A DNA stretch of 64,000 nucleotides from Escherichia coli (GTDB lineage Bacteria > Pseudomonadota > Gammaproteobacteria > Enterobacterales > Enterobacteriaceae): assembly GCF_017348835.2 (NCBI RefSeq), contig NZ_CP071375.1; one strand, 5' to 3'. The translations under genes were made by a program, and so were the position numbers. Within the stretch, counting starts at the first letter, position 1. Every line of letters begins with the position of its first letter. The notes beneath the pieces were generated by a model, which was not told the DNA's origin, searched no databases, and was given only the letters and a program-made list of their open reading frames with translations. Below are positions 4,816 through 30,898 of this stretch, one piece after another.

Positions 4816-4844
4816 ACCACCACATAACTATGGAGCATCTGCAC

Positions 4845-15467: not shown

Positions 15468-17099
15468 GTGTTAACGCTGCTTCACCTGCTTTCTGCCGTC
15501 GCCCTGCTGGTCTGGGGGACTCATATTGTTCGAACCGGCGTAATGCGCGTCTTCGGCGCGCGTCTGCGTACTGTCCTTAGCCGGAGCGTCGAAAAAAAGC
15601 CGCTCGCCTTTTGCGCGGGGATCGGCGTTACCGCACTGGTACAGAGCAGTAATGCCACCACCATGCTGGTGACCTCGTTCGTCGCTCAGGATCTGGTAGC
15701 CCTCGCACCGGCTCTGGTGATTGTGCTGGGGGCAGATGTCGGGACGGCGCTAATGGCGCGTATTCTCACCTTCGACTTATCCTGGCTGTCACCGTTACTT
15801 ATTTTTATCGGCGTGATTTTTTTCCTCGGACGCAAACAGTCACGCGCCGGGCAACTGGGCCGCGTCGGTATTGGTCTTGGGCTGATTTTACTGGCGCTGG
15901 AGTTGATTGTGCAGGCCGTAACGCCGATCACCCAGGCAAACGGCGTTCAGGTGATCTTTGCCTCGCTGACCGGCGATATTCTGCTGGATGCGCTGATTGG
16001 CGCGATGTTCGCCATTATCAGCTACTCCAGCCTTGCTGCTGTACTGCTGACCGCGACTCTGACCGCCGCAGGCATTATCTCCTTCCCCGTGGCACTCTGT
16101 CTGGTGATTGGTGCTAACCTCGGTTCCGGCCTGCTGGCGATGCTCAACAACAGTGCCGCCAATGCCGCAGCCCGCCGTGTCGCGCTGGGTAGTCTGCTGT
16201 TTAAGCTGGTGGGTAGCCTGATTATCCTGCCGTTTGTCCATTTGCTGGCAGAGACAATGGGGAAGCTGTCATTGCCAAAAGCGGAACTGGTTATCTATTT
16301 CCACGTCTTCTACAACCTTGTACGTTGCCTGGTCATGCTGCCATTTGTTGACCCGATGGCACGGTTTTGCAAAACGATTATTCGCGATGAACCGGAACTG
16401 GATACCCAGCTACGGCCTAAACATCTGGATGTCAGCGCGCTGGATACACCCACGCTTGCTCTGGCGAACGCCGCGCGCGAAACCCTGCGCATTGGCGACG
16501 CCATGGAACAGATGATGGAAGGGCTGAATAAAGTGATGCACGGCGAGCCAAGGCAGGAGAAAGAGCTGCGTAAGCTGGCAGATGATATCAACGTTCTCTA
16601 TACCGCCATTAAGCTGTATCTGGCGCGGATGCCAAAAGAGGAACTGGCAGAAGAAGAGTCGCGCCGCTGGGCGGAGATCATCGAAATGTCGCTCAACCTT
16701 GAACAGGCCTCCGATATCGTCGAGCGCATGGGGAGCGAAATTGCCGACAAATCGCTGGCTGCAAGGCGAGCATTTTCGCTTGATGGCTTGAAGGAACTGG
16801 ATGCGCTCTATGAGCAATTGCTCAGTAATTTAAAGCTGGCAATGTCGGTGTTCTTCTCTGGTGATGTTACCAGCGCCCGTCGTTTGCGCCGCAGCAAGCA
16901 TCGCTTTCGCATTCTTAATCGCCGCTATTCCCACGCCCACGTCGATCGCCTGCATCAGCAAAACGTGCAGAGCATTGAAACCAGTTCGCTACATTTAGGC
17001 TTACTGGGAGATATGCAGCGTCTGAACTCGCTGTTTTGTTCGGTGGCTTACAGTGTGCTGGAACAGCCGGATGAAGATGAAGGACGGGACGAGTATTAA
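15468..17099 (+). CDS. yjbB: Na+/phosphate cotransporter family (PhoU-domain) inner membrane protein
   Basis: 543-aa ORF; multi-pass hydrophobic N-terminal half, soluble helical C-terminal half; position after metH. Confidence 0.85.
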   Translation: MLTLLHLLSAVALLVWGTHIVRTGVMRVFGARLRTVLSRSVEKKPLAFCAGIGVTALVQSSNATTMLVTSFVAQDLVALAPALVIVLGADVGTALMARILTFDLSWLSPLLIFIGVIFFLGRKQSRAGQLGRVGIGLGLILLALELIVQAVTPITQANGVQVIFASLTGDILLDALIGAMFAIISYSSLAAVLLTATLTAAGIISFPVALCLVIGANLGSGLLAMLNNSAANAAARRVALGSLLFKLVGSLIILPFVHLLAETMGKLSLPKAELVIYFHVFYNLVRCLVMLPFVDPMARFCKTIIRDEPELDTQLRPKHLDVSALDTPTLALANAARETLRIGDAMEQMMEGLNKVMHGEPRQEKELRKLADDINVLYTAIKLYLARMPKEELAEEESRRWAEIIEMSLNLEQASDIVERMGSEIADKSLAARRAFSLDGLKELDALYEQLLSNLKLAMSVFFSGDVTSARRLRRSKHRFRILNRRYSHAHVDRLHQQNVQSIETSSLHLGLLGDMQRLNSLFCSVAYSVLEQPDEDEGRDEY

Positions 17100-17100
17100 T

Positions 17101-17190
17101 ACCGTGACCCTGTAGGCCTGATAAGACGCGTAAAGCGTCGCATCAGGCACTATGAACAAGATGCCGGATCATGCATCCGGCAATTCACTT
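17101..17190. repeat. REP element(s) between yjbB and pepE
   Basis: GCCTGATAAGACGCG...CGCATCAGGC and GCCGGATCATGCATCCGGCA palindromic units. Confidence 0.7.
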
Positions 17191-17878
17191 AAAAACGGTG
17201 ACCCGCTTCCAGCGGAACCGCTTCTTCACCGGCCTTAAACACATAGGTGGTGTTCGGGCCACCCAGCGTTGCGTGACCTTTACTCACTGTGATCCAGTTA
17301 CCTTCCGGTAGACCAATAATTGTGAGTTCTGGCGCGACGACCAGCAGTTCGCGAATACGCTGTTCACGGGTTTCACCTTTATGGCCTTCCGGCAGCGCGT
17401 TGGTGAAGTGCGGGTTGATTTGCAACGGGAACAGATTCAGCGCATCGAAACCTTGTGGATCGACAATCGGCATATCGTTGGTGGTACGAATGGTTGGGCA
17501 AGCAAGGTTAGCGCCAGCGCTCCAGCCAATATACAGCGCGCCACGTTTAACCACGTCAGTAATTGGTGCCAGCAGCCCGCGCTCGCGGCACTGTTTCAGC
17601 AACTGGAAAGTATTACCGCCGCCGACAATCACGATCTCAGCATTTTCAATCGCGGCAACGGGATCGACAACGCTATGAATACCGGTGACAGAAACACCCA
17701 GCGGAGCAAGAACCGCAGCCGTTTTCGCTGTGTAATCATCCCAGGTCTGCGTTACGCCAGCGAAAGGGATAAACACCGCTGAGCGGCGACCCTGCAACTG
17801 TTCAGCAATTAGCGGCAGTGCATGTTCCAGCCAGGCTTTACCCGGCAGCGTCGAGTTACTCAATAAAAGCAGTTCCAT
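17189..17878 (-). CDS. pepE: Peptidase E (alpha-aspartyl dipeptidase)
   Basis: 229-aa [31 protein letters not shown]... recognised as PepE. Confidence 0.93.
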
Positions 17879-17989
17879 TACTTCTCCGGTTAGTAAGAAA
17901 TCACGGAAGGAATGCTACCACTGCGAATTTAACCACTTACTGACATGGCTCACGATGTCACGTATTGCACAGGCGCTGAGACTGATGAC

Positions 17990-18120
17990 AAACACAGCAT
18001 TGCCTGATGCGCTACGCTTACCTGACCTACCAGATAACTGCAATATATTGAATTTTCAAAATTATGTAGACCGAATAAGGCTTCATTCCGCATCCGGCAT
18101 AAACAATGTGCACTTTGCCA
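17990..18120. repeat. Degenerate REP-like units between pepE and sorE
   Basis: GCCTGATGCGCTACGCTTA and GCTTCATTCCGCATCCGGCAT motifs resembling REP consensus. Confidence 0.5.
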
Positions 18121-18258
18121 CCAATTTGAGCGCCCCTTAAGGCGCTGATATTTTTTATGCTTCTCGTGCAAATTGTGCTGCTTCAGCAATCAGCAGCTCA
18201 TCCGGTCGCGAAGTTGCTGGTGCGACCAGCCAGCGACATGCAGAGTTGAGTAACGCGA

Positions 18259-19488
18259 TTAATCATGGGAAATTGCCTCTGCATGAGTGAGCAGATATTG
18301 CTCCGCCTCACCGGACCAGATCCCCTGATGACGCGCCAGAATCGCCGCCAGTGCTTGATCCTGAATCTGCGTGAGTGACGTCAGCGGCAGGTATTTCTCG
18401 GTATACACCAGCTTTTTGCCGCCGCCGACGGCAGGCAATTCAAGCGTGGTTTCGCCCGCGGCATTCAGCCCAAGAATATGTGTTACCACTTTTGCGGCCT
18501 GCACTTTTTTCTCTTCGATCAGTTTGACCGCCGCGCGCATGTCGTCGGTATTGCCGCCTGACGTGCCCACGTAGTGGGTAAATGCATAATGCACATCGTA
18601 GAAATTAATTGGCGCGCTGAAATGTTTATCCTGCGGTCCGGCGAAGAAATTCAGGCAACCATCTGTCGCCAGCAAGGAAGAGGCGAGAGTCACCAGTCCT
18701 TCATTAGGCACAAAGACGAAAATATCATCGAAGCCGTGACCGCCACTCAGCGCCATTAGCGTATCAAATGCTGCATCGGTGGCATTGAGATAATGAATCA
18801 GTGTTTGCGGTTCTGATGGATAGTGCTTGCGCGCATAACTCAATTTATCGTTGTCGGTATCGGTAATGACGAGCAGCGACGGGTTAACGGGTCCATGTAG
18901 CGCATAATCAATCGCCAACAGTCCCATTGGTCCGGTGCCGCCGAGGATCAGCGTGCGCCCTTGCGGGCGAATCCCCATCGTGTGGTTATAACTACCTTCC
19001 TGAAGATGATAGTTGGCGTTGAACGCGCCAATCACGCAGGAAAGTGGTTCAACCAGCGAGCCTTCAAAATAGGTTTCGCCGTCGTATGCCAGCAGGCAAT
19101 CTTGTTCCATGACCTCGTTGGGAATAACCACATGCGTGGCTTCGCCGCCCACCCACGGGAAGGAGTAGCCGGGGCAGTCCGGGCGATCCGGCAATTGCAG
19201 GTTGGCCTGAATCACATAACGCTGACCCGGCTGGAATTTGTGCTGCCACTTTTTACCCACGGCCAGAATATCGCCGCAAAACTCGTGGCCGATGATGATT
19301 GGGTTGGTCGCCACATCGTCGGGTACTTTTTTATGGTTTTCACCCAGGTTGGCCTCTTTCCAGGAAGAGAGGCACAGGCTGTCAGTGACCACCGTCGCGA
19401 GGATTTCATCCTCCTGCATTTCAGGAAGGTCAAAGGTTTCCAGGCGTAAATCACGTTTACCATAAAGACGCAGAGCTGTTGTTTTCAT
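18259..19488 (-). CDS. sorE: L-sorbose-1-phosphate reductase (Zn-dependent MDR-family dehydrogenase)
   Basis: ORF 18259..19500 trimmed to MKTTALRLYGKRDLRLE...; medium-chain dehydrogenase fold; last gene of a sor-type operon. Confidence 0.8.
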   Translation of the reverse strand: MKTTALRLYGKRDLRLETFDLPEMQEDEILATVVTDSLCLSSWKEANLGENHKKVPDDVATNPIIIGHEFCGDILAVGKKWQHKFQPGQRYVIQANLQLPDRPDCPGYSFPWVGGEATHVVIPNEVMEQDCLLAYDGETYFEGSLVEPLSCVIGAFNANYHLQEGSYNHTMGIRPQGRTLILGGTGPMGLLAIDYALHGPVNPSLLVITDTDNDKLSYARKHYPSEPQTLIHYLNATDAAFDTLMALSGGHGFDDIFVFVPNEGLVTLASSLLATDGCLNFFAGPQDKHFSAPINFYDVHYAFTHYVGTSGGNTDDMRAAVKLIEEKKVQAAKVVTHILGLNAAGETTLELPAVGGGKKLVYTEKYLPLTSLTQIQDQALAAILARHQGIWSGEAEQYLLTHAEAISHD

Positions 19489-19539
19489 AAACCACCTCAT
19501 GTTGAGCGATGGCCCCGGCAGTCGTGCCGGGGCGAAGAA

Positions 19540-20364
19540 TCAGGACAGGAAGCCCAGCGCATTGCCGATAATCCCTAAGCCAAACAGGGCGAAAATCAGC
19601 CATACCGGGTTAATTTTTTTGTTGAGCAGACGAACCATTAGTAGCGTCAGACCGAGCGCCAGCAAACCAGGGCAAAGTTGGTCGAGAATGTTCTGCACGG
19701 TCATGATGACGGTGGAGCCATCGGCGGCATGCGTTTGTGAAACCACCAACGGTACGTTGATTGACGTCCATTTGGTGACCAGCACGCCCATCACAAACAG
19801 TCCGAGAATCGACGCGCCTTCGGTGAGTTTTTGCAGCAAATTACCGCCCATATCGCTGACGATATTCACCCCTTTGCGAAAGCCGAGCTGGAGGCCATAC
19901 CACTTCATCGCCAGACGCACCGCGTTGAAAATAAAGAAGAACAGCAGCGGGCCGAGAATGTTGCCCGAAAGTGCCAGAGATGCGCCGAGCGCGGCGGTAA
20001 TCGGGCGCAGCGTTCCCCAGACCAGTGGATCGCCAACCCCTGCCAATGGTCCCATCAGACCGACTTTGATGCCGTTAATGGTGCCGTCATCAATTTCCGC
20101 GCCGTTGGCCCGCGCCTCTTCCATGGCGGCAGTGACGCCGATGACCGGGCCACATACGGCTGGCGTGGTATTGAAGAACACCAGGTGTCGCCTGAGCGCC
20201 GCAACCTGATCCTCTTTTAATGGGTAAAGTCGCTTGATGGCGGGGATCATGTCGTAGCAAAAGCCCAGCCCGTGAATACGTTCAAAGTTAAAGGACGCCT
20301 GTTGCAGGTTGGAGCGCAGAAACATGCTCACCAGATCGCTGCGTGTAATTTTTCTCTGTTCCAT
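19540..20364 (-). CDS. sorM: PTS sorbose/mannose-family EIID component
   Basis: ORF 19540..20394; EIID-like membrane protein; likely start MEQRKITRSDL... giving about 274 aa. Confidence 0.8.
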   Translation of the reverse strand: MEQRKITRSDLVSMFLRSNLQQASFNFERIHGLGFCYDMIPAIKRLYPLKEDQVAALRRHLVFFNTTPAVCGPVIGVTAAMEEARANGAEIDDGTINGIKVGLMGPLAGVGDPLVWGTLRPITAALGASLALSGNILGPLLFFFIFNAVRLAMKWYGLQLGFRKGVNIVSDMGGNLLQKLTEGASILGLFVMGVLVTKWTSINVPLVVSQTHAADGSTVIMTVQNILDQLCPGLLALGLTLLMVRLLNKKINPVWLIFALFGLGIIGNALGFLS

Positions 20365-20374
20365 GATGGCTCCG

Positions 20375-21172
20375 TTAATCGTCAAGTTGGTCAAGGGCGG
20401 TGGAAGCGGGGGCCTGGAGCTGAGGTTCAGCTTTACGCCACTGTGGATTTAACTGGATGTAGACCAGGGCCATGATCACGCCGACGCCACCGAACGCCAG
20501 CAGACTGAGATCGAGGTAGCCACCTGCGAGGAAACCGAGGAAAAAGAAAGGCATCAAATATTTCACGCCCATCATACGTAGCACCATGGCGTAACCGACC
20601 ACCACGATAAAACCGCCAGCAATCTGTAGTCCTCGGGTCACAAATTCGGGAATGGCGTTTAACATATTGCTCACCATATCGGCGCTGACGAACAGCGAGA
20701 CAATCAGTGCCGGAACAGCAACGCGCAGCGCCTGCACGCCAAGCGCGGAGACATGCAGAATATCGAGAGTGCGAAACCGTGCTTCTTCCGCTGCTTTATC
20801 CGCCGCGTGCTGGAACACTACGGTGATGGTACGTGCAAACACCGTCAGCACCTGGCCTGCCGCAGCCACAGGCAACGCGATGGCGATTCCGGTGGCGATG
20901 CTTTGCTGACCAACGATAACCAGAATGGCGGAGATTATGCTGGCGAGTGCAGAATCCGGAGATTGCGCCGCGCCGACGTTCATCCAGCCGAGAGCTATCA
21001 ATTCCAGCGTACCACCGAGTATTATTCCGGTTTTTAAATCACCGAGAATTAAACCAATCACCGTACAGGCAATTAACGGGCGATGAGTCTGGAATTCATC
21101 CAGCACGCTGCCCATTCCGGCAATACAGGAAAAAAGAAATATAGCAATAATTTGTAGGGTACTTATTTCCAT
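20375..21172 (-). CDS. sorA: PTS sorbose/mannose-family EIIC component
   Basis: 265-aa hydrophobic ORF with EIIC-like sequence (MEISTLQIIAIFLFSCIAGMGSVLDEFQ...). Confidence 0.8.
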   Translation of the reverse strand: MEISTLQIIAIFLFSCIAGMGSVLDEFQTHRPLIACTVIGLILGDLKTGIILGGTLELIALGWMNVGAAQSPDSALASIISAILVIVGQQSIATGIAIALPVAAAGQVLTVFARTITVVFQHAADKAAEEARFRTLDILHVSALGVQALRVAVPALIVSLFVSADMVSNMLNAIPEFVTRGLQIAGGFIVVVGYAMVLRMMGVKYLMPFFFLGFLAGGYLDLSLLAFGGVGVIMALVYIQLNPQWRKAEPQLQAPASTALDQLDD

Positions 21173-21237
21173 GATTTGTCACCTTTTAAGTGTCGTCATC
21201 CCTGCCTGTTAAAGCATATGTACACAGGCGCTATTAT

Positions 21238-21732
21238 TTAATTTGCGATTAACTGTTCGTTTATTTTGTCGATAATATTGATTGAGGGATCTGACGCTAC
21301 GACGCGTAAATCCAGTATGACGCCAAGATTATTTAACTCATGAAATGCGTTAATATCATCATCATCTAATGAAACCGCTTTGGTTAACTGTTTTTTACCG
21401 GGCCGCCAGGCCATGCCGCCAATATTCAGGGTGCCTATTTTTACCCCCTGGCGAACCATCGCTAAGGCATCCTGTGGGCGAGTGAAAAGATAAAAAACGG
21501 TTTCGTCCTGATATTGCGGGTTGTGATAAACCGCGACGGCTTTTTCAATATTGACCACGTTAACCTTCATTCCCGGTGGCGCAGCCTGACGCAATAATGT
21601 CCGGCGAACTTCATCGTTATAAACTTCGTCATTGCAGATAATAATGCGCTGGGCGTTAGCCACTTTCGACCAGACGGTAGTGACCTGACCGTGGATCAGG
21701 CGGTCATCAATGCGGGCGAGCGTAATGTTCAT
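21238..21732 (-). CDS. sorB: PTS sorbose/mannose-family EIIB component
   Basis: 164-aa ORF MNITLARIDDRLIHGQVTTVW... (conserved IIB His motif). Confidence 0.85.
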   Translation of the reverse strand: MNITLARIDDRLIHGQVTTVWSKVANAQRIIICNDEVYNDEVRRTLLRQAAPPGMKVNVVNIEKAVAVYHNPQYQDETVFYLFTRPQDALAMVRQGVKIGTLNIGGMAWRPGKKQLTKAVSLDDDDINAFHELNNLGVILDLRVVASDPSINIIDKINEQLIAN

Positions 21733-22139
21733 CAGAAATCCTCCTCTGCCGTTGCCACCTGTCTCCAGACGACGCAGGATTGCTTTGCGATTTGCGTCAG
21801 GTGTTCACACAGTTCATCAACATTCATGCTGTCCTGGTTATCAACCAGTTCGAGCGCCAGCGGCAGAGAAAGGCCGCTGATTACCCGCAAACGAGGATTG
21901 CGCATCGCAAGCATCGCTGCCGCATTCCACGGGCTGCCGCACTGTAAATCCACGGCAATCAGCCACTCATCTTGATTGTGAATGCTTACTAACTTTTCCA
22001 GCTTTACCACAATGTCTCCGGCGTTTTCACCGGGCACAAATTCAACGGCTTCAACATTGGCGTTGCCGTAAACCATCTGAACCGATTCCAGCATGGCGCA
22101 AGCTAATTTGCCGTGGGCACAAAAAATGGCGTTGACCAT
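21732..22139 (-). CDS. sorF: PTS sorbose/mannose-family EIIA component
   Basis: 135-aa ORF MVNAIFCAHGKLA...; start of sorB overlaps its stop (ATGA), indicating translational coupling. Confidence 0.85.
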   Translation of the reverse strand: MVNAIFCAHGKLACAMLESVQMVYGNANVEAVEFVPGENAGDIVVKLEKLVSIHNQDEWLIAVDLQCGSPWNAAAMLAMRNPRLRVISGLSLPLALELVDNQDSMNVDELCEHLTQIAKQSCVVWRQVATAEEDF

Positions 22140-22148
22140 AAAGCCTCC

Positions 22149-22955
22149 TTATCCGCGCGTTTTGCCGCCCGCAATGTTAGTGGTTACTCCGGTGATGTAG
22201 CTGGCGCGTTCAGACAACAGATAACAAACAAAATCAGCGACTTCTGCTAATCTACCGGCGCGCCCAATAGGAATGGCGTTTTTGGTATAGCCTTCACGCA
22301 GCTGCTCGACGGTGATATTGCGCGTCCACGCCAGCGCTTCTTCATATTCCGGCGTGCGCAGTCCTGTTTTTTCCAGAATCCCCGGCGCGATACCGACCAC
22401 ACGGATACCGTGTTTACCCAATTCTTTCGACCAGGAGCGCGTGAAGCTATTGAGCGCGGCTTTGGTAGCGGCGTAACAGCTTTGTCCTTCTGAGCCTTCC
22501 AGCCCACTTTCTGAGGAAACATTCACAATCACGCCATCATGTTGTTTGACCATCTGTCGCGCCACCGCCTGCGACATCAGAAAAACACCTTTCTGGTTGA
22601 TATTGACCATTTTTTCGAATGCAGCTTCGTTGAGTTCATACTGCCCGGCAGGCGCTTTCTCATCGACCAGCAGACGCGGGAAATTGACCCCGGCGTTATT
22701 GACCAGACCGTCGATGCGACCAAAACGCTGGATAATTTCCGCTACCGTATGATTTACCTCTTTGGCGCTGGAAATATCGGTCGGCCAAAACTGATAGCCT
22801 TTATGACCTTCATATTGTCCATCGCCACCGTGAATATCGACCATCTGTACATTCGCGCCTTGTGCTAATAATTCCTCTACAATCGCCAGACCAATACCGG
22901 ATGCGCCGCCGGTGACGATAATGATTTTATCCTGCAAATTTAACCACGTTTGCAT
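22149..22955 (-). CDS. sorD: Sorbitol-6-phosphate 2-dehydrogenase (short-chain dehydrogenase/reductase)
   Basis: 268-aa ORF with TGGASGIG Rossmann motif and SDR catalytic YxxxK (YAATKAAL). Confidence 0.8.
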   Translation of the reverse strand: MQTWLNLQDKIIIVTGGASGIGLAIVEELLAQGANVQMVDIHGGDGQYEGHKGYQFWPTDISSAKEVNHTVAEIIQRFGRIDGLVNNAGVNFPRLLVDEKAPAGQYELNEAAFEKMVNINQKGVFLMSQAVARQMVKQHDGVIVNVSSESGLEGSEGQSCYAATKAALNSFTRSWSKELGKHGIRVVGIAPGILEKTGLRTPEYEEALAWTRNITVEQLREGYTKNAIPIGRAGRLAEVADFVCYLLSERASYITGVTTNIAGGKTRG

Positions 22956-23024
22956 AACAGACTCCTGATTTTAGATAATAGGGACCCGCCGTAATTTTTA
23001 TTACGATAAACATCGGGAAGATTT

Positions 23025-23972
23025 TTATTTCAGTAATAGTTCAGCTGTGCTGCTATTCGTTACCAGACAATTAATATATTTTCCACGCAGTGCACCAATA
23101 ATTCCGCTGTATTTTTCTTCACTCATGGCAATGCCAATGGAATATCGTGCCTGCTTTAATTTATTCATTTCGATAGAGAGTGTTTTTTCGCTCATATTCG
23201 TTTCAACCATTGCGCCGTGAATATCAAAAAAGCGCGAGCAAATATCGCCAGCAACCTGGCGGGCATTCAGGTCGTCACTCTCTTCACCACCATAAAACGC
23301 ATGCCAGTTAGCGCCGTCGCGAATGGCCGGTGAGCCAATTCCCACCAGGGCGACATCCAGATTATCCCAGTAGGCAGAGATGGTTTTAAAGTGCTGAGAC
23401 TGCATGATCCCATTACGAATTAAGGGGTTATCCAGCAGAGCCGGAAAATCCGCGAGATGCGATTCCCCTTTCAGCTTCGCTGCCGCGCTGTAGGTTAATG
23501 TGTTTACGTGATAGCGGCTTTCGAGTTTACCGGACGGTCCGCCAATAATTGGCACGCAGATTAACTGCCGCGATTGCCCCGCTTGCGGCAAGTTTTCAAC
23601 CAGTGCGCTCACCGCGCGACCCCAGGAAAAACCGACAATATCGCCAGGCTCCAGCAAGCGATCCAGCAGTTGCGCGCCGTGTAACCCCATCATCGCCAGT
23701 TGAGTCTCTTCATCCTCATCATTTCCCGACACCACCACAACGTCTTTCAGGCCAAACTTTTGCTTCAGTTGCTGCTCGAGCCAGAGATTTTCGTTGTAGT
23801 CATAGTTGATGGCGATGGTGACAATTCCCTGATCGCGGCCTCGTTTAAGCAAGCGGCTGATGGTGGTGCGGTAAATACCCAGTTCGCGCGCGATTTGCGC
23901 CTGCGTCATATCCTGTTCGTAATAGAGTTGGGCAATCTTCACAATCAAACGGATATCGTCACTGTTTTCCAT
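23025..23972 (-). CDS. sorC: SorC-family transcriptional regulator of the sorbose operon
   Basis: ORF 23025..24056 trimmed to MENSDDIRLIVKIAQLYYEQDMTQAQIARELG... (HTH plus sugar-binding domain, about 315 aa). Confidence 0.8.
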   Translation of the reverse strand: MENSDDIRLIVKIAQLYYEQDMTQAQIARELGIYRTTISRLLKRGRDQGIVTIAINYDYNENLWLEQQLKQKFGLKDVVVVSGNDEDEETQLAMMGLHGAQLLDRLLEPGDIVGFSWGRAVSALVENLPQAGQSRQLICVPIIGGPSGKLESRYHVNTLTYSAAAKLKGESHLADFPALLDNPLIRNGIMQSQHFKTISAYWDNLDVALVGIGSPAIRDGANWHAFYGGEESDDLNARQVAGDICSRFFDIHGAMVETNMSEKTLSIEMNKLKQARYSIGIAMSEEKYSGIIGALRGKYINCLVTNSSTAELLLK

Positions 23973-23988
23973 TGCCGCCTCCTGGTTC

Positions 23989-24111
23989 TGCACATTTGTG
24001 CAAATACGCTTTCTCACCGCTTGATCTGATATAACCCCATCATGATGGCCTTTCAAAGCGATTTTTCACTCTTTGCATGGGGAGAAATAGCGCTTTCTCT
24101 TGCACATTTGT
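23989..24111. promoter_or_regulatory. sor promoter region with repeated TGCACATTTGT motif (one copy forms palindrome TGCACATTTGTGCA)
   Basis: Motif occurs at 23989-24002 and 24101-24111, just upstream of the sorC start; candidate SorC operator sites. Confidence 0.35.
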
Positions 24112-24319: not shown

Positions 24320-25192
24320 ATGCTGCCCGACTCATCAGTCCGTTTAAATAAATACATCAGCGAAAGCGGAATTTGCTCACGCCGCGAAGCGGATCGCTAT
24401 ATCGAGCAAGGCAATGTGTTCCTTAATGGCAAGCGAGCCACCATTGGCGATCAGGTGAAACCCGGCGACGTTGTGAAAGTAAACGGTCAGTTGATTGAGC
24501 CTCGGGAAGCCGAAGATTTGGTACTTATCGCCTTGAACAAGCCCGTCGGTATTGTCAGCACCACCGAAGATGGCGAGCGCGATAACATTGTCGATTTCGT
24601 TAACCACAGCAAACGCGTGTTCCCGATTGGTCGTCTGGATAAAGATTCCCAGGGGCTGATTTTCCTCACCAACCACGGTGATCTGGTGAATAAGATCCTG
24701 CGTGCTGGCAATGATCATGAAAAAGAGTATTTGGTAACGGTCGATAAACCGATTACCGATGAATTTATTCGTGGTATGGGGGCGGGAGTGCCGATCCTCG
24801 GGACGGTGACGAAAAAGTGCAAAGTCAAAAAAGAAGCACCGTTTGTCTTCCGCATTACCCTGGTGCAGGGGTTGAACCGTCAGATCCGTCGCATGTGCGA
24901 GCACTTTGGTTACGAAGTGAAAAAGCTGGAACGTACGCGCATTATGAACGTCAGCTTAAGCGGCATTCCGCTGGGTGAGTGGCGCGATTTAACTGACGAT
25001 GAGTTAATCGACCTCTTTAAGCTCATCGAAAATTCCTCTTCCGAGGCAAAACCTAAAGCGAAGGCCAAACCGAAAACAGCGGGCATCAAACGTCCAGTCG
25101 TTAAGATGGAAAAAACGGCGGAAAAAGGCGGTCGCCCGGCGTCCAACGGTAAGCGTTTTACCTCGCCGGGGCGAAAAAAGAAGGGGCGCTAA
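24320..25192 (+). CDS. rluF: 23S rRNA pseudouridine synthase F
   Basis: 290-aa ORF with S4 domain and RsuA-family catalytic region ([22 protein letters not shown]). Confidence 0.9.
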
Positions 25193-25465
25193 TCAGCGCC
25201 TGCCGCGCGTCGACGTATTTGCTGACCAGCTAAATGACGCTTCAGGATCCGGTTTATAAGCCTGCTTTTTCTTTAACTGGCGGGCTTTTTTCGCTTCAGC
25301 CTCACGCTCGACCATTAATTTATCGATGTACTCTTTCTTAATGCTGTTGGTTTCGGAGTTGGTCAGTACGCGACCATGCGCAATCCGCGCCCGATCCAGC
25401 AGTGTTTTAAGTTCACGTTGCTCGCGTTCAGTCATCTCTTTTTGAGTAATACGGGGGAGTGCCAT
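25193..25465 (-). CDS. yjbD: Small conserved protein YjbD (DUF3811-like)
   Basis: 90-aa ORF MALPRITQKEMTEREQRELKTLLDRARIAHGRVL... at the expected position. Confidence 0.8.
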   Translation of the reverse strand: MALPRITQKEMTEREQRELKTLLDRARIAHGRVLTNSETNSIKKEYIDKLMVEREAEAKKARQLKKKQAYKPDPEASFSWSANTSTRGRR

Positions 25466-25993
25466 GATGGTGCCCTCAGTGAGCCAGAGAGTTCAGTGTA
25501 CGGGAATTCGTTTGCGAGCAGAACTGATAATATTCCTTTGTTCTCTTCTTAAATATTTATCTTTCTTGATAATTGACGATAAATACAGATACAAATTTAG
25601 CGAAAAAATCTCCCCCTACAAACAACAATGATTTATTAAATCTTTATTTTTCATGTAATTAAAATTTTTTATCACTTCTGGCACGCTTCTCGCAATAACA
25701 CTTTTGCGTTGATACTGAATTACAAAGGGGGTTAAACCCCGTCGGCACACCAGGAACGGCCAGGCTGTTTTCCGGGCGTGTTCCGTCAGCCTTTGACGCC
25801 AATTACGGGTTCGATTCCCACATTCATTCCTGAAATGAATACTGGTTGTAACTTATTAAATAAAAAATGAGGGATTGCGCAGTCTGCGGTCCCCGATAAC
25901 GTCACCGATAAAGATGCCGGGTAACAGGCAAAAGGGAATTCCCCTGTCGCTTCGTGTCTGCTTCCGCGACGGCTATTAAGCAAGGAATAGATA

Positions 25994-27121
25994 ATGATTA
26001 AAAAAATAAGCGTAAGAAAAGATCAGCTGGCATTACTCTCCAGAAACGGCGATTACTACAAAGTGCTGCATGCAGGCGAGCATATTTTACCCTGGTTAAA
26101 TACCCCGGAAGTGTTGCTGATTACGCTGGATGGTAGCGAAGTTCCCGACGTGCTTGCGGATTATTTGCGCCGCTTTCAGCCTGATTGGGTGGAGAAATAT
26201 TGCCTGGTGGCAGACTTGTCGGAGACTGAAGCCGGGGTGTTGTATATGGACGGTATTTTGTTGGAGATCCTGCCGCCATCAACGCGTCGTTTGTACTGGC
26301 GTGTAGAGGATGATTTGACGCTGGTGCGGATGAATACGCAGCAAGTCCCGGTACAAACGGAGGTGATGAATGCGGTATTACAGCCACGGCGCAAAGGAGT
26401 TGTTAAAGGCCGCGATGCGATACTGACGGTGCAGGTTCCGGCCTGGCATGTAGGCGTGCTGAAAATCGATGGTGAAACGCAGGCGCTGTTACCGCCGGGG
26501 CTGACTGCGTACTGGAAAATAAATCATCTGGTTGAAGCTGAAGTTGTCGACACCCGCTTGCAGGTACTGGAAGTCAGCGGGCAAGAAATCTTAACGAAAG
26601 ATAAGGTCAATCTGCGGATTAATCTCGCCGCTAACTGGCGCTATAGCGATGTGTTGCTGGCATTTAGTCAGCTAACGAAGCCGATTGATCATTTGTATCG
26701 GGAATTACAATTTGCCCTGCGTGAAGCGGTAGGTACGCGCACACTGGATGAACTGCTGGAAGATAAACAGGTCATTGATGACGTTGTTAGCGAGCAGGTG
26801 AAACTACGCATGAAGCCGTTCGGTATGGAGATCGCTTCGTTAGGAGTAAAAGATATCGTCCTGCCTGGCGATATGAAAAATATTCTTGCGCAACTGGTAG
26901 AGGCGGAGAAATCCGCGCAGGCCAATGTGATTCGCCGACGTGAAGAAACGGCAGCGACGCGCTCGTTACTGAACACCGCCAAAGTCATGGAGAACAATCC
27001 GGTAGCGTTGCGTTTAAAAGAGCTGGAAACGCTGGAGAGAGTGGCTGAGCGGATTGATAACATCTCTGTATTTGGCGGTCTGGATCAGGTTCTGCATGGG
27101 TTGGTTAATATCAAAGGGTGA
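25994..27121 (+). CDS. Soluble SPFH/band-7 (stomatin/prohibitin-like) domain protein with a novel ~170-aa N-terminal domain
   Basis: 375-aa ORF; C-terminal half has SPFH-like features (VSGQEILTKDKVNLRINLAANWRY...AEKSAQANVIRRREETAATRSL); no evident N-terminal transmembrane segment; AAGGA Shine-Dalgarno before the ATG. Confidence 0.7.
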   Translation: MIKKISVRKDQLALLSRNGDYYKVLHAGEHILPWLNTPEVLLITLDGSEVPDVLADYLRRFQPDWVEKYCLVADLSETEAGVLYMDGILLEILPPSTRRLYWRVEDDLTLVRMNTQQVPVQTEVMNAVLQPRRKGVVKGRDAILTVQVPAWHVGVLKIDGETQALLPPGLTAYWKINHLVEAEVVDTRLQVLEVSGQEILTKDKVNLRINLAANWRYSDVLLAFSQLTKPIDHLYRELQFALREAVGTRTLDELLEDKQVIDDVVSEQVKLRMKPFGMEIASLGVKDIVLPGDMKNILAQLVEAEKSAQANVIRRREETAATRSLLNTAKVMENNPVALRLKELETLERVAERIDNISVFGGLDQVLHGLVNIKG

Positions 27122-27918
27122 GTAACATGCCATTAAATGGAGTCAGTGCTGCGATGCGCGAAAGGGTATCGCAGCAGTTAAAAGAAATTGAACGTCGCTA
27201 TGGCGTGAAAGTGCTGTACGCCTGCGAATCGGGGAGTCGCGGCTGGGGATTTGCTTCGCCCGACAGCGATTACGATGTGCGGTTTTTGTATGTCCATCCG
27301 CTGGAATGGTATCTGCGGGTAGAGGCACCACGCGATGTTATCGAACTGCCCATCGACGACGAGTTAGATGTTTCCGGTTGGGAATGGCGCAAAGCGCTGG
27401 GATTGCTGAAAGGTGCGAATCCCACGCTAATTGAATGGCTGGATTCACCGGTGGTCTATCAGCAAGATGAAGAGACGATAACGGCGCTTAAGGCAATGGT
27501 CCCAACGTGGTTTTCTCCGTTGCGTGCGCGCTGGCATTACTATTCGATGGCGCAGAAAAACTTCCGCGGATATTTGCAGGGCGATGAAGTTCGACTGAAA
27601 AAATACTTTTACGTGCTGCGTCCGTTGCTGGCCGTGCGTTGGGTTGAAGCGGGAAAAGGCGTACCGCCAATGCGTTTTTCCGAATTGCTGGCGGGAAGTG
27701 AGTTGGATGCGGCCTTACGCGCAGAAATAGATGAATTACTGGAACGTAAACAGCGTGCGGGTGAAGCGGAATATGGCCCACGCCGTCCATTGCTACATGC
27801 GTTTATCCATGCGGAACTGGCGCGTGGGGAAATTCCGCCTGTGTTACCGGATAGTAGAGAAGGGGACGTTAAGAAACTGGATAGCTTACTGTACCAGACG
27901 GTAATGCGCCGGGCGTGA
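27118..27918 (+). CDS. Pol-beta-superfamily nucleotidyltransferase
   Basis: 266-aa ORF; ESGSRGWGFASPDSDYDVRF fits the hG[GS]x9-13DxD nucleotidyltransferase signature; GTG start at 27118 overlaps the upstream stop (GTGA), alternative ATG at 27127 with AGGGTG Shine-Dalgarno. Confidence 0.7.
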   Translation: MSNMPLNGVSAAMRERVSQQLKEIERRYGVKVLYACESGSRGWGFASPDSDYDVRFLYVHPLEWYLRVEAPRDVIELPIDDELDVSGWEWRKALGLLKGANPTLIEWLDSPVVYQQDEETITALKAMVPTWFSPLRARWHYYSMAQKNFRGYLQGDEVRLKKYFYVLRPLLAVRWVEAGKGVPPMRFSELLAGSELDAALRAEIDELLERKQRAGEAEYGPRRPLLHAFIHAELARGEIPPVLPDSREGDVKKLDSLLYQTVMRRA

Positions 27919-27933
27919 TGCCCGGCGTTATTT
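27906..27933 (+). terminator. Intrinsic terminator after the nucleotidyltransferase gene
   Basis: Hairpin CGCCGGGC-gtgat-GCCCGGCG overlapping the stop codon, followed by TTATTT. Confidence 0.5.
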
Positions 27934-27950
27934 CAGGTCATCAGCTTTTA

Positions 27951-28880
27951 TTATTCTTGTGCACTTCCGCTGATTTCATTTTGTATATGCGTTGCAATAT
28001 CGCAATTGGTTGCCGCTTGTGAACTAAATATCATCTTCTCACGCGAATACACCGCAAACTTATCTGCCAGGTTTGAAGCAAACACCTTGCTGGCATTTTC
28101 TGCTAGCAAATCGGTAACGATATCATGGTGATTTTTATCCACTTTGCGGGCGATATTTCCCGCCTCTTTGTCCTTATTATACCCTTCGTTGGTGCTTTCC
28201 CAGCTTAATGCCGCTGAGGTGGTTTTTATCATGACTTCTGTTCGGTAGCCTGCATCTTTGAGTTTTTTTAATGTTTGTAGCGGCGTAGCGGCATTACGAA
28301 ATGTTCCTTCGACAACAATATTGAGTTTATTGGCTATGGCCCTCTCTATTGCACGTTCGACCGTTTCGCCGGAAAATTTTGCCGTATGGGTAACAAAATC
28401 GTCGCCATAAGTTTGATATATATAATTAAAATCAGGGTGTAGAAATCTGAAATCATCACCATTAATAATCATTATATTATTCTTTGTTTCCCTTTTTGCT
28501 AATTCGATTAGGGCGGATTTTCCGGCTCCTGGTTGTCCACCTAAAACAAAACCAATGGGACTCTGCTGGGATGTGACGTCATGGTTTGTCAGACGCTGCC
28601 AAATAGAATCAAAAGACGCTTTATTTTCTGAATGCGCAGTATTATTAAATTCACGCTGATACTTTTTTCTGACCTGCTGGAGGCGTAACTTTCCCTGTGT
28701 AAAATCAACAAGTTCTGCTGGAGTGGAATAAAGATTGTCGCGATAGCTGACTAATTGTGATAGCTCATCGTCTGAGTCCTGAACTTGTGAGGAAAAACAA
28801 CTGTCGACGATATTTGATAAAAACGCGATGCACTGACTGGTGCCGTTTAAAAGTGCATCTTTTTCCATTAAAGTAGCCAT
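27951..28880 (-). CDS. ezeT: Single-chain zeta-toxin family protein (EzeT-like UDP-GlcNAc kinase toxin with N-terminal cis-antitoxin domain)
   Basis: ORF 27951..28886; Walker A GGQPGAGKS placed ~110 residues from the N-terminus (long N-terminal extension); zeta-toxin-like C-terminal region; likely ATG at 28880 preceded by AGGAG; AT-rich. Confidence 0.7.
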   Translation of the reverse strand: MATLMEKDALLNGTSQCIAFLSNIVDSCFSSQVQDSDDELSQLVSYRDNLYSTPAELVDFTQGKLRLQQVRKKYQREFNNTAHSENKASFDSIWQRLTNHDVTSQQSPIGFVLGGQPGAGKSALIELAKRETKNNIMIINGDDFRFLHPDFNYIYQTYGDDFVTHTAKFSGETVERAIERAIANKLNIVVEGTFRNAATPLQTLKKLKDAGYRTEVMIKTTSAALSWESTNEGYNKDKEAGNIARKVDKNHHDIVTDLLAENASKVFASNLADKFAVYSREKMIFSSQAATNCDIATHIQNEISGSAQE

Positions 28881-29024
28881 TAACACTCCTGTTAAATAAT
28901 ATTTTTCGGTGATTATAATACTGTTCTACAGGAGTGATTTTGCATTTCAGATATTATTTAATCTATGTTTGCAGTGAGGATGGCGTATAACAATTGGTGA
29001 GCGTTATACGCCAGTAGGAAAATA

Positions 29025-30374
29025 TTACTCAAACAAATTACTATGCAGTTTTTGCACCACCTGCTCGGCATCTTCGCCGGGCACCAGGAAGCACAGGTTA
29101 TGGCTGGATGCGCCGTAACAAATCATGCGAATGTTGAACGGTTCCAGTACGCCGAATACCTCTTTGCCAACGCCGCAGGCTTTTGACAGGTCATTGCCAA
29201 TCAACGCGACCAGCGCCAGACCTTCTTCTACTTCCACCCGGCACAGTGCGGAAAGCTCCATCAGCAGAGATTGCGTCAGCAACGTATCGCCAGTGGAGGT
29301 TGAACCGGTGGTATCAAGGGTTAATGCCACGCTCACTTCTGACGTGGTGATTAAGTCTACCGAAATATTATGCCGCGCGAGGATGCCGAAAACTTCCGCG
29401 AGGAAGCCGCGAGAATGCAGCATATTCAGGCTGTGCAAAGTGAGCAGAGTCTGATTGCGACGAAGCGCCAGCGCGCGGAACAGCGGCGGATTTTCAGTTT
29501 TATTGCATACCAGCGTACCACCTGCGCGTGGGTCTTTGCTGGAGCCGACAAAGACCGGGATATCGCTGCGTACTGCGGGTAGCAATGTTGCCGGATGCAG
29601 TACTTTTGCACCAAAAGTTGCCATCTCTGCTGCTTCGGCAAACGCGATTTCATCAATGCGTTTTGCTGCGGAAACCACGCGTGGATCGGTGGTGTAGATG
29701 CCCGGGACGTCGGTCCAGATATCAACACGAGATGCGTGTAAAGCCTCCGCCAGCAAGGCTGCCGTATAATCGCTGCCTCCACGGCCAAGCGTCGTTGTAC
29801 GACCTTTATTTTCGCTACCGATAAATCCCTGGGTGATCACTAAACCTTCATTGAGACGTGGGAGCAGCTGCAGCGCGGCCAGTTCCGCCAGCGCGGCTAT
29901 ATCTGGCTCTGCACGACCAAATCGGTCGTTGGTACGCATCACTTTACGTACATCAAACCACTGTGCCTGAACATCGCGTTCGCGCAGGATCTCAACAAAC
30001 AGCAGGGTCGACATCAGCTCGCCGTGGCTGACCAGCTCATCTGTCAGCGCCGGAGACGTTGCCAGCGCCGCCGCTTCTGCCAGAACAGTAATGTTCTCCA
30101 GCAGACGTTCAATCTCTTCACGGATAACGTTCGGGTAACGCAGACGTTCCAGAATGGCAAACTGGATGTTGCGAATAGCGTCGAGTTTTTCGAATCGCTC
30201 GCCAGGTTCCAGCCCTTCCGCTAAAGCGACCAGCAGATTAGTGATACCAGCAGAAGCCGAGAGGACAACTAAACGCACGTTGGCATCAGAAAGCACAATA
30301 TCAGCGCTGCGGTTCATGGCGTCAAAATCAGCTACGCTGGTACCGCCAAATTTGGAGACAACAATTTCAGACAT
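29025..30374 (-). CDS. lysC: Lysine-sensitive aspartokinase III
   Basis: 449-aa ORF MSEIVVSKFGGTSVADFDAMNRSADIVLSDANVRLVVLSASAGITN... recognised as LysC. Confidence 0.95.
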   Translation of the reverse strand: MSEIVVSKFGGTSVADFDAMNRSADIVLSDANVRLVVLSASAGITNLLVALAEGLEPGERFEKLDAIRNIQFAILERLRYPNVIREEIERLLENITVLAEAAALATSPALTDELVSHGELMSTLLFVEILRERDVQAQWFDVRKVMRTNDRFGRAEPDIAALAELAALQLLPRLNEGLVITQGFIGSENKGRTTTLGRGGSDYTAALLAEALHASRVDIWTDVPGIYTTDPRVVSAAKRIDEIAFAEAAEMATFGAKVLHPATLLPAVRSDIPVFVGSSKDPRAGGTLVCNKTENPPLFRALALRRNQTLLTLHSLNMLHSRGFLAEVFGILARHNISVDLITTSEVSVALTLDTTGSTSTGDTLLTQSLLMELSALCRVEVEEGLALVALIGNDLSKACGVGKEVFGVLEPFNIRMICYGASSHNLCFLVPGEDAEQVVQKLHSNLFE

Positions 30375-30439
30375 AACTACCTCGTGTCAGGGGATCCATT
30401 TTCAGCCTTGGCACAAGGGAAGAGCGGAAGACGGGTGGG

Positions 30440-30660
30440 CGCAGAGCGATACTTCGCTACTATTTTCACCCAGAAGTGCTCCACCACTTGCGAAACGCCC
30501 GACTGCGAACGCTTCTGGTGACAACCCAGGGGATTCAGCCCCTGTAGCCGATGATGAACGTGGCCAGCCGTTCAATCACCTCGGCGATGCACCCCCTCAG
30601 GTGTTATCACAGGACTGGCTCCTCCAACACCGTTACTTGGGCAACGCGCCTCTTCTGGCC
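30440..30660 (-). ncRNA. Lysine riboswitch (LYS element) in the lysC 5' leader
   Basis: Long 5' leader on the minus strand upstream of lysC; reverse complement contains AGAGGCGCGUUGCCCAAGUAACGGUGUUGGAGGAGCCAG ... GGUGCAUCGCCGAGGUGAUUGAACGG, consistent with the known lysC lysine aptamer; boundaries approximate. Confidence 0.65.
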
Positions 30661-30898
30661 TGCGCTAGCGCAGGTAGTACATTTATAAATAAAGGGTGAG
30701 CGGGGCGGTTGTCAACGACGGGGTCATGCGGATTTTTCATCCACTCCTGGCGGTCAGTAGTTCAGCTAATAAATGCTTCACTGCGCTAAGGGTTTACACT
30801 CAACATTACGCTAACGGCACTAAAACCATCACATTTTTCTGTGACTGGCGCTACAATCTTCCAAAGTCACAATTCTCAAAATCAGAAGAGTATTGCTA

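Follow-up and report, generated by a model that had tools for sequence, protein, structure and literature searches.

The stretch of DNA analyzed here, 64,000 nucleotides of one strand of the Escherichia coli contig NZ_CP071375.1 (assembly GCF_017348835.2; hereafter the window), carries a strain-variable block between yjbD and lysC. The gene order runs from the sorbose operon through rluF and yjbD to a 528-bp noncoding stretch, three genes, lysC, the lysine riboswitch and pgi. Between the end of yjbD (25465) and lysC (29025), we found three intact open reading frames (ORFs) for an SPFH protein, the nucleotidyltransferase RlaP and a zeta toxin (EzeT). Pfam matches confirmed the three extra genes named in the original prediction, and yjbD and lysC are indeed neighbors in K-12, with a spacer of only 252 bp in both K-12 W3110 and O157:H7 86-24. 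Overall, our analysis suggests that the SPFH-RlaP unit is probably the eroded remnant of an RNA-repair operon governed by RtcR and sigma-54 (rtcR, then leader-SPFH-(rtcB)-rlaP), joined here by ezeT and reduced in K-12 to a scar. The features are listed below, those of the block before those of its flanks.

25466-25535 (no strand assigned): yjbD-proximal spacer, identical at 70 of 70 positions to the K-12 and O157 spacer.
25536-25600 (no strand assigned): putative remnant of the rtcR start region with TTATC/GATAA repeats, aligning beside the rtcR start codon of Citrobacter, Pseudocitrobacter, Pluralibacter and Phytobacter.
25679-25694 (+ strand): predicted sigma-54 (-24/-12) promoter TGGCACgcttcTCGCA, TGGCAC-N5-TTGCA with one mismatch.
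25711-25831 (+ strand): 5′ region of the predicted leader RNA, RNAalifold consensus helices 1-4 with compensatory changes.
25896-25975 (+ strand): 3′ domain of the leader, a long imperfect hairpin whose end lies about 20 nt upstream of the SPFH start codon.
25994-27121 (+ strand): SPFH/Band-7 (slipin-like) protein, 375 residues; Pfam Band_7 PF01145, E = 7.6e-24.
27127-27918 (+ strand): RlaP-family Pol-beta nucleotidyltransferase, 263 residues; PF10127, E = 1.3e-96.
27951-28880 (- strand): ezeT allele, zeta-toxin protein, 309 residues; PF06414, E = 8.9e-39.
28881-29024 (- strand): region between the ezeT 5′ end and the lysC 3′ end, with a hairpin at 28985-29016 after the lysC stop codon.
24320-25192 (+ strand): rluF.
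25193-25465 (- strand): yjbD.
29025-30374 (- strand): lysC.
30466-30662: lysine riboswitch of lysC, an Rfam match.

The SPFH protein is stomatin-like over residues 181-373, where stomatin structures were matched at E values down to 3.7e-22, and its N-terminal 145 residues are unannotated; no hydrophobic helix was seen in it, the sequence being read by eye only. We assigned it as an orthologue of the Band-7 protein of Rtc operons, of the PaFlo8 type of Pseudomonas aeruginosa. The rlaP gene starts 5 nt past the SPFH stop codon, and the PF10127 match of its product spans model positions 1-248 of 249, with the GS...DxD catalytic core of Pol-beta enzymes present (GSRGWGFASPDSDYDVRF). In NCBIfam, the SPFH protein matched only HflK/HflC, weakly, and RlaP had no match. 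No RtcB or other ligase gene was found beside rlaP in the window; the assignment to the RlaP family stands by homology, though the E. coli copy is ligase-less. Enzymes of this family add one or two nucleoside monophosphates to RNA 3′-OH ends in vitro, as reported from P. fluorescens and P. aeruginosa only (PMC12776372).

Of the 5,426 complete E. coli genomes in which the block was counted, 1,424 had 80% or more of the interval, 1,433 had ezeT and 1,631 had SPFH-RlaP, so that 26-30% of genomes carry the block and K-12 does not; the locus is strain-variable and accessory rather than shared by K-12 and essentially all E. coli, as had been predicted. E. coli PE164 (NZ_CP114128.1) matched the window at 100% over 4.3 kb. 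A block of about 3.5 kb had been drawn from 25466 to 29024; the block itself held, but its left boundary did not, since 25466 to about 25600 is homologous to K-12 and the truly variable segment is about 25600-29024 (~3.4 kb), in place of which K-12 has ~120 bp. In 148 genomes, the ezeT slot behind SPFH-RlaP is filled instead by a ~15.7-kb phage-tail-only cluster. In KOr019 (NZ_CP091665.1; locus L007, 28716-44401), this cluster lies between rlaP and lysC, in the slot equivalent to window positions 27919-29024, and clusters of this type encode a Mor activator, holin, lytic transglycosylase, sheath, tube, tape measure, baseplate and fiber; no head, replication or integrase genes are annotated in them, and they resemble a tailocin or a defective Mu-like prophage remnant. 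Degraded forms also occur: XJ6-3 has a truncated SPFH gene and a deleted rlaP with ezeT persisting, and GN25 and PT62 carry the insertion sequence IS1. In O145:H28 RM12581 (locus L009, 3986-4914), whose block is 98.8% identical to that of the window, ezeT is annotated as frameshifted, and the toxin gene may be inactive in at least part of this outbreak lineage. Immediately to the left, the sorbose (sor) phosphotransferase system operon and its regulator (window ~16000-24056) form a second strain-variable block between pepE and rluF; it is also present in O157, KOr019 and non-coli Escherichia, and is missing from K-12 and LY180, where pepE adjoins rluF directly.

The composition of the block was as anticipated: ezeT is AT-rich (40.9% GC; 36.8% at third codon positions), and SPFH (50.1%) and rlaP (53.0%) are near the backbone (lysC, 53.9%). 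We found no integrase or transposase ORF in the interval, no direct or inverted repeats flanking the block beyond chance, and no tRNA gene or tRNA target at it, which agrees with the original prediction and leaves none of the usual marks of an integrative island or transposon (integrase, transposase, flanking direct repeats, tRNA or att target). PADLOC assigned no defense system; SPFH and RlaP were unmatched, and the P-loop of the toxin gave a marginal match only (E = 1e-3).

The ancestry of the SPFH-RlaP unit was read from its neighbors in other taxa. Homologues were searched with one representative protein per 50%-identity cluster, as a direct search gave mostly near-identical E. coli entries; the search returned 545 clusters of full-length homologues at E <= 1e-30. 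An alignment (A1) of 39 SPFH homologues led to 80 genomic loci, in which neighbors were mapped by tblastn. SPFH-RlaP lies downstream of rluF-yjbD in Citrobacter sp. Cu233, Pseudocitrobacter, Enterobacter sp. BIGb0383, Siccibacter, Pluralibacter, Kosakonia and Phytobacter, and it directly abuts lysC-pgi in five of these seven genera, those whose loci extend far enough. The 460 bp upstream of SPFH-RlaP are also kept at the yjbD-lysC position in the seven genera, and non-coli Escherichia have the complete three-gene block there. The locus of Enterobacter sp. BIGb0383 (L012) runs from yjbD through a higBA-like pair and a transporter to a divergent rtcR-like sigma-54 activator and then SPFH-rtcB-rlaP-lysC. 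The HigB/HigA-like toxin-antitoxin pair and the bile-acid/sodium symporter-like gene of this locus (4124-5824) lie between yjbD and rtcR, so cargo varies on the yjbD-rtcR side of the locus in other genera too. In Citrobacter and Pseudocitrobacter, rtcR stands beside SPFH-rlaP-lysC and rtcB is lacking, and Pseudomonas has rtcR, then two tRNA-like genes-SPFH-x-rtcB-x-rlaP-rtcA. Most of the proteobacterial loci among the 80 have rtcR upstream and/or rtcB downstream of SPFH, and rlaP orthologues follow rtcB in the Enterobacter, Pseudomonas and Burkholderia loci. The divergent rtcR activator is absent from the window and present in every other enterobacterial locus examined; a ligase-less SPFH-RlaP occurs also in Citrobacter, Pseudocitrobacter, Superficieibacter, Mangrovibacter and Hafnia. 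A Band-7 gene and a b7a-tRNA adjoining RtcB were described by Burroughs and Aravind in 2016, as quoted in bioRxiv 10.1101/312249, and PaFlo8 is situated within the rtc locus of P. aeruginosa (PMC13086221).

The 252-bp spacer of K-12 proved informative. Its first 70 bp are identical to block-bearing strains, and the next ~65 bp are homologous to the rtcR-start and upstream-repeat region and in places nearer to Citrobacter than to the block alleles. It also holds a GGCAAT stretch that aligns, in collinear order, with the Enterobacter sp. (L012) promoter at the -12 box and the first bases transcribed, and 26 nt that are 85% identical to window positions 25902-25927 (score 32 compared with 16.9 ± 2.3; 0 of 200 shuffles as high). 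Because an untouched insertion site could not hold these pieces, the empty K-12 allele most probably arose by deletion from a block-bearing ancestor. The adjacency of yjbD and lysC in K-12 would thus be the derived state, and the block would be accessory through loss rather than gain.

The 528-bp "spacer" upstream of SPFH, not remarked on in the original prediction, is best regarded as part of the unit, with a predicted sigma-54 promoter and a structured leader RNA of about 300 nt. The rtcR-SPFH intergenic region was aligned across 10 sequences from nine genera, among them E. coli. The hexamer TGGCAC of the predicted promoter is invariant in all of them; the -24 GG and -12 GC are both present at 25679-25694, and the promoter interval shows 0 differences in 19 positions among E. 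coli haplotypes. Farther upstream, the start codon of rtcR and the gene itself are gone from E. coli, and the TTATC/GATAA repeats remain; the interval 25536-25600, in which 0-3 of 65 positions vary between three deep E. coli haplotypes and which is also kept in the K-12 spacer, may be an activator-binding site. The AT-rich tract between the conserved elements shows 12-22% differences among the same haplotypes. Overall, the upstream sites, promoter and hairpin differ by 0-5% among haplotypes compared with 23-50% at neighboring synonymous sites. Sigma-54 promoters require an activator. The canonical rtcR-rtcB genes are present in 4,838 of the 5,426 genomes (89%) and co-occur with the block, for example in O111:H11 strain 8D. 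The predicted promoter resembles the canonical rtcBA promoter of K-12, CTGGCACgacggTTGCAAT, and the canonical rtcR-rtcB intergenic region and the block share GACGATA, AAATCTCC, an AT-rich tract and a similar promoter. Because of this co-occurrence and these common intergenic features, activation by RtcR and use of RtcB in trans are plausible.

The leader structure became visible only by comparison, as single-sequence folding was insignificant (z = -0.41). RNAalifold on 13 Enterobacterales sequences gave a consensus of 41 pairs with 96.4% of cells paired. Compensatory changes were found in 29 of the 41 pairs compared with 11.2 ± 2.2 in shuffled alignments (0 of 500 reached the observed count), and control registers slid by 1-3 columns gave 4-10. 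In the 5′ domain, a T-arm-like hairpin, CGGGTTCGATTCCCA, lies at 25806-25820, 174-188 nt upstream of the SPFH start codon, and a 3-4-bp T-arm with the loop TTCGATT survives in the E. coli leader. The motif GGTTCGAnTCC is found upstream of the SPFH family in most of the 80 loci, from Pseudomonas to cyanobacteria, frequently as a pair spaced by about 72 nt. In Pseudomonas, Betaproteobacteria and cyanobacteria, ARAGORN and Rfam RF00005 call tRNA-like genes with odd anticodon loops at this place. These genes usually come as tandem pairs (for example, at L018 7560-7705, L071 7625-7770, L087 7522-7665 and L077 7027-7178); ARAGORN gives those of Pseudomonas, Thiotrichaceae, Moraxellaceae and cyanobacteria aberrant anticodon loops or the rare anticodons ACG, AAA, ATA and AGG. 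The element in E. coli shares the position of the b7a-tRNA, immediately upstream of SPFH on the same strand. The tRNA models of ARAGORN and Rfam found no match in the E. coli or Citrobacter leader; therefore, the enterobacterial leader is best described as a derived form of the b7a-tRNA, a derivative and not a member. Rfam searches of the block and of the leader alone, up to E = 10, returned the lysine riboswitch of lysC and chance matches, with no Y RNA, YrlA or tRNA.

The 3′ domain of the leader has 23 predicted pairs, 13 of them with compensatory change, and only 2-4 differences in 80 positions among E. coli haplotypes. Its covariance model (R1) matched just upstream of SPFH in Xenorhabdus, Providencia and Snodgrassella (E = 4e-5 to 2e-3; L049 7831-7939, L054 7840-7958, L046 7839-7957 and L024 7862-7968), and at default filters, it did not reach the Pseudomonas, Burkholderia or cyanobacterial loci. 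This hairpin is not in Rfam, and the quotation of Burroughs and Aravind in bioRxiv 10.1101/312249 mentions the tRNA-like RNA alone.

Selection on the genes was estimated between the window and the B1 strain LY180 from the synonymous divergence (dS) and the ratio of nonsynonymous to synonymous divergence (dN/dS). SPFH had a dS of 0.23 and a dN/dS of 0.053 and RlaP a dS of 0.50 and a dN/dS of 0.037, next to a dS of 0.03 in the adjacent lysC. SPFH and RlaP are under strong, long-term purifying selection in E. coli. Because all Escherichia haplotypes lack rtcR and rtcB and dN/dS is 0.04-0.05, this selection has continued after the two genes were lost.

The allele in the window has its own history. 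Compared with LY180 (B1), the flanks differ by 0-2% over most of their length and the block by 3-16% in 200-bp windows, the transitions being sharp, near 25520 and 29024. The unclassified Escherichia E3659 and E4694 share the gene order and differ from the window by 6-7% in rluF, 7% in yjbD and 15% in lysC, compared with 0.2% in the leader, 1.0-1.5% in RlaP, 1.2-1.3% in ezeT and about 4% in SPFH. Positions 25466-25535 differ from E3659 at 9 of 70 sites, which places the left recombination breakpoint at about 25535. Because the block is nearly identical to that of non-coli Escherichia while the flanks differ by 6-15%, the comparison indicates that homologous recombination brought the window allele in from a non-coli Escherichia. 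This haplotype is found in about 41 E. coli genomes, the O145:H28 lineage among them. The common B1 haplotype is 5.5-12% distant from it, and a third haplotype, linked to the tail cluster, is 6.5-8.3% from both. The block distance between B1 and non-coli Escherichia is about the flank distance, which fits vertical co-divergence followed by import into some E. coli. At two other places, divergence was uneven. A patch of rluF (24520-24919) differs by 5-7.5% from LY180 within a gene otherwise at 0-1.5% and looks like a separate recombination tract. In E3659 and E4694 (L091 and L094 11031-12673, against window 29025-30898), lysC is 15% and the lysC-pgi intergenic region with the lysine riboswitch 21% distant from E. 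coli; both values are far above those of rluF and yjbD (~7%) or pgi (~3.4%).

The third gene, ezeT, stands apart. Its product matched the PezT structure 2p5t at E = 3e-31, with the Walker A motif GGQPGAGKS and GDDFR kept, and is 88% identical and collinear from residue 1 with WP_000212693.1, found in LY180. The latter is the experimentally validated EzeT, the neighbor of lysC in B1 strains (PMC10532202). According to PMC4803016, EzeT is a single-chain toxin-antitoxin, shown as such for the B1 allele only, in which a C-terminal zeta-type kinase phosphorylates UDP-N-acetylglucosamine (UDP-GlcNAc) and residues 1-82 inhibit the kinase in cis, the truncated toxin causing lysis only below 30°C. Collinearity places a fused N-terminal cis-antitoxin of about 83 residues in the window protein, and no separate antitoxin gene is present, the neighbors being lysC and rlaP only. 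The window gene is thus a divergent ezeT allele with a predicted N-terminal cis-antitoxin and a predicted C-terminal UDP-GlcNAc kinase toxin; its dN/dS against LY180 is 0.14. A plasmid source was considered and rejected: the only full-length matches were two chromosome-sized E. coli records filed as plasmids in PLSDB, NZ_OL790696.1 (4.80 Mb) and CP061233.1 (1.01 Mb), and true plasmid zeta toxins were at most 42% identical, over the toxin domain only. The gene was absent from all 80 SPFH loci of non-Escherichia taxa and was found in Escherichia only. Because it is absent outside Escherichia, has no close plasmid relative and is AT-rich, we regard ezeT as a presumptive separate, Escherichia-specific acquisition between rlaP and lysC; it meets rlaP and lysC at the same points in both haplotype classes, which argues for a single acquisition.

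Upstream of ezeT, a 9-bp perfect inverted repeat (CACTCCTGT/ACAGGAGTG; 28884-28936, - strand) holds TATAAT in its loop and covers the Shine-Dalgarno sequence of ezeT. The region folds at -18.7 kcal/mol (z = -3.96) and is 96-97% conserved between haplotypes, with the repeat kept in the B1 allele. Read-through transcripts from lysC would carry the whole hairpin, with the Shine-Dalgarno sequence paired to the upstream anti-Shine-Dalgarno sequence and ezeT untranslated, and transcripts from the predicted internal promoter would escape it. This intergenic region (28881-29024) has no similarity to the lysC-proximal sequence of K-12.

Taken together, we provide a putative history and mechanism for the locus. 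The Escherichia lineage would have lost rtcR, with anything between rtcR and yjbD, and rtcB, and would have kept the upstream sites, the sigma-54 promoter, the leader RNA with its T-arm-like hairpin, SPFH and RlaP. Upon RNA damage, an enhancer-binding protein, most likely the canonical RtcR encoded elsewhere, would fire the promoter; the leader RNA and the SPFH protein would form a scaffold, RlaP would add one or two nucleotides to the 3′ ends of damaged RNA or tRNA, and ligation, if needed, would be performed by the canonical RtcB in trans. ezeT would be a second, unrelated unit in the slot, a self-contained toxin-antitoxin, its kinase held in check by its own N-terminal domain. Loss and allele replacement would have produced the present polymorphism, in which most E. 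coli are scarred and some have the tail cluster in place of ezeT. Going further, we tentatively raise the possibility that leader RNA, SPFH and RlaP form an autonomous working module and not a relic, fired by RtcR and triaging or mending tRNA or rRNA ends before they are sealed by RtcB. When damaged tRNAs accumulate, such a module would supply a tRNA-derived RNA serving as scaffold or decoy, a cage of SPFH protein and an enzyme that tails 3′ ends.

Several points weigh against the remnant-operon reading. A sigma-54 promoter without a neighboring activator may be silent, and its activation by RtcR in trans is argued only from resemblance in sequence and from how well the upstream sites are conserved. 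Only position and the T-loop motif equate the E. coli leader with the b7a-tRNA. In the K-12 spacer, the 26-nt match could partly align to the 5′ domain of the leader instead of the 3′ domain, and the lysC-proximal ~80 bp had no match in any locus compared. Additionally, E. albertii, E. fergusonii and Salmonella lie outside the comparison, which limits how closely the losses and the gain of ezeT can be dated.

Three other explanations were weighed against the remnant operon. The original prediction pictured a horizontally acquired islet of 3.5 kb, inserted in one or two gains into an ancestrally empty yjbD-lysC spacer. The patchy distribution (26-30% of genomes) and the low GC of ezeT would suit it, as would block alleles that are 6-12% diverged beside flanks at 1-3%, the pattern expected of imported DNA, and the window allele was indeed imported from another Escherichia species. 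However, the imports that we observed are allele replacements by homologous recombination and not insertions; the same genes occupy the same slot in seven other genera and in non-coli Escherichia, the K-12 spacer holds pieces of the upstream sites, a -12 box match and a leader fragment, and integrase, transposase, att repeat and tRNA target are all lacking. We consider this explanation unlikely as a whole and largely refuted for SPFH-RlaP. The word "inserted" was wrong for these two of the three genes, given their synteny and the K-12 remnants, but right in spirit for ezeT, which is likely an insertion into an older SPFH-RlaP-lysC arrangement. The suggestion of separate or older acquisitions likewise held as far as separate histories are concerned, with ezeT confined to Escherichia and absent from the 80 other loci, and failed where it treated SPFH-RlaP as an insertion. 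The genes could instead belong to a single system, such as anti-phage abortive infection, in which SPFH and the nucleotidyltransferase sense or signal and the zeta toxin kills. Nucleotidyltransferases and toxins are frequent in defense systems; the three genes lie close together in 1,424 genomes, their junctions do not differ between the two deep haplotypes, and the slot behaves as a hot spot with the tail cluster as alternative cargo. We nevertheless find a single system very improbable, because no other taxon examined has a zeta toxin with its SPFH-RlaP, at least 148 E. coli genomes have SPFH-RlaP but no such toxin, XJ6-3 keeps ezeT although its SPFH gene is truncated and rlaP is deleted, and PADLOC has no SPFH or RlaP model and matched the toxin only marginally (E = 1e-3). 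Moreover, ezeT is convergent and compositionally distinct, and, in the experiments described in PMC4803016, a self-sufficient toxin-antitoxin.

It could also be argued that the E. coli SPFH-RlaP is a nonfunctional relic nearing deletion, kept by inertia or by hitchhiking with an addictive ezeT. Both rtcR and rtcB are missing, the unit is already deleted in 70% of genomes, partial deletions or insertion sequences are found in XJ6-3, GN25 and PT62, and ezeT is frameshifted in O145:H28 RM12581. Decay of this kind sits poorly with a dN/dS of 0.04-0.05 across a dS of 0.23-0.50, which points to purifying selection after the loss of rtcB and rtcR, and with a promoter, upstream sites and leader hairpins that are far more conserved than adjacent synonymous sites. 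The ligase-less SPFH-RlaP is also retained in five other genera. Therefore, we doubt that the unit is a mere relic and favor the conserved remnant of an RtcR/sigma-54 RNA-repair operon.

If this reading holds, the K-12 gene order at this locus is a deleted state and not the default, and a second RNA-repair system, itself poorly understood, is present in part in about 30% of E. coli. The carriers include the Shiga-toxin-producing and enteroaggregative B1 serotypes O104:H4, O103 and O111 and the phylogroup-E O145. To our knowledge, the Band-7 protein and the tRNA-like RNA of this system have never been experimentally characterized. E. coli W and LY180 carry a minimal form (promoter, leader RNA, SPFH and RlaP, without ligase), and the canonical Rtc system is widespread in the species (89% of complete genomes). 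If W and LY180 have that system as well, what the SPFH scaffold and the leader RNA do could be tested directly in a tractable host, natural null alleles serving as controls. If, moreover, the module were autonomous, the presence or absence of the block (30%) would be a natural polymorphism in tolerance to RNA damage, for example by ribotoxins, colicins or ribosome-targeting antibiotics. As for EzeT, the genes beside it do not belong to a mobile island, and two classes of alleles can be told apart at a distance of about 12%, one of them common to non-coli Escherichia. The locus is otherwise an ordinary case of differential gene loss and import by homologous recombination between Escherichia species. 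The minimal, ligase-less and regulator-less yet conserved E. coli copy and the K-12 scar appear to be undescribed, the component families all being known.

The nearest known systems are the Band-7/b7a-tRNA/RtcB/RlaP operons. The window SPFH is orthologous to theirs, with 56-58% identity to Pseudomonas and 77-84% to enterobacterial copies, and the P. aeruginosa rtc operon with PaFlo8 and PaRlaP has in common with the block the RlaP orthologue, the gene order and the sigma-54 promoter. In both, a T-loop RNA lies between promoter and SPFH. The chromosomal slot of the block is the one found in other Enterobacteriaceae. Unlike these operons, the E. coli block has no RtcB ligase, RtcA cyclase or adjacent RtcR; any ligase or activator would have to act in trans. 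Its RNA has no recognizable cloverleaf, being a leader of ~300 nt with an extra 3′ hairpin. The canonical rtcR-rtcBA locus next to malT has a sigma-54 promoter of almost identical sequence and a GATA-rich upstream region similar to that of the block, and RtcR and RtcB of K-12 are 63% and 73% identical to the proteins of the yjbD-lysC type in Enterobacter sp. It differs in its location, its frequency (89% of genomes compared with 30%) and its short, unstructured 5′ untranslated region, and it has no SPFH, RlaP or tRNA-like RNA.

The rsr-yrlBA-rtcBA operon of Salmonella likewise places a noncoding RNA with tRNA features between an RtcR-dependent promoter and repair genes, beside a putative scaffold protein. 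In bioRxiv 10.1101/312249, Band-7/b7a-tRNA and Rsr/YrlA are proposed as analogous cofactor pairs. In contrast to the Salmonella operon, the scaffold of the block is an SPFH and not a Ro/TROVE protein, its RNA has no Rfam match to Y RNA or YrlA, and the ligase is not in cis. As for the zeta/PezT UDP-GlcNAc kinases, the window allele shares with the studied EzeT the lysC-side locus, the two-domain architecture and the conserved Walker A motif and catalytic Asp. It differs in having 309 residues instead of 308, in its N-terminal antitoxin domain, which is the most diverged part, and in belonging to a minor class, found at nucleotide identity of at least 99% in 43 of the 1,433 genomes that carry ezeT.

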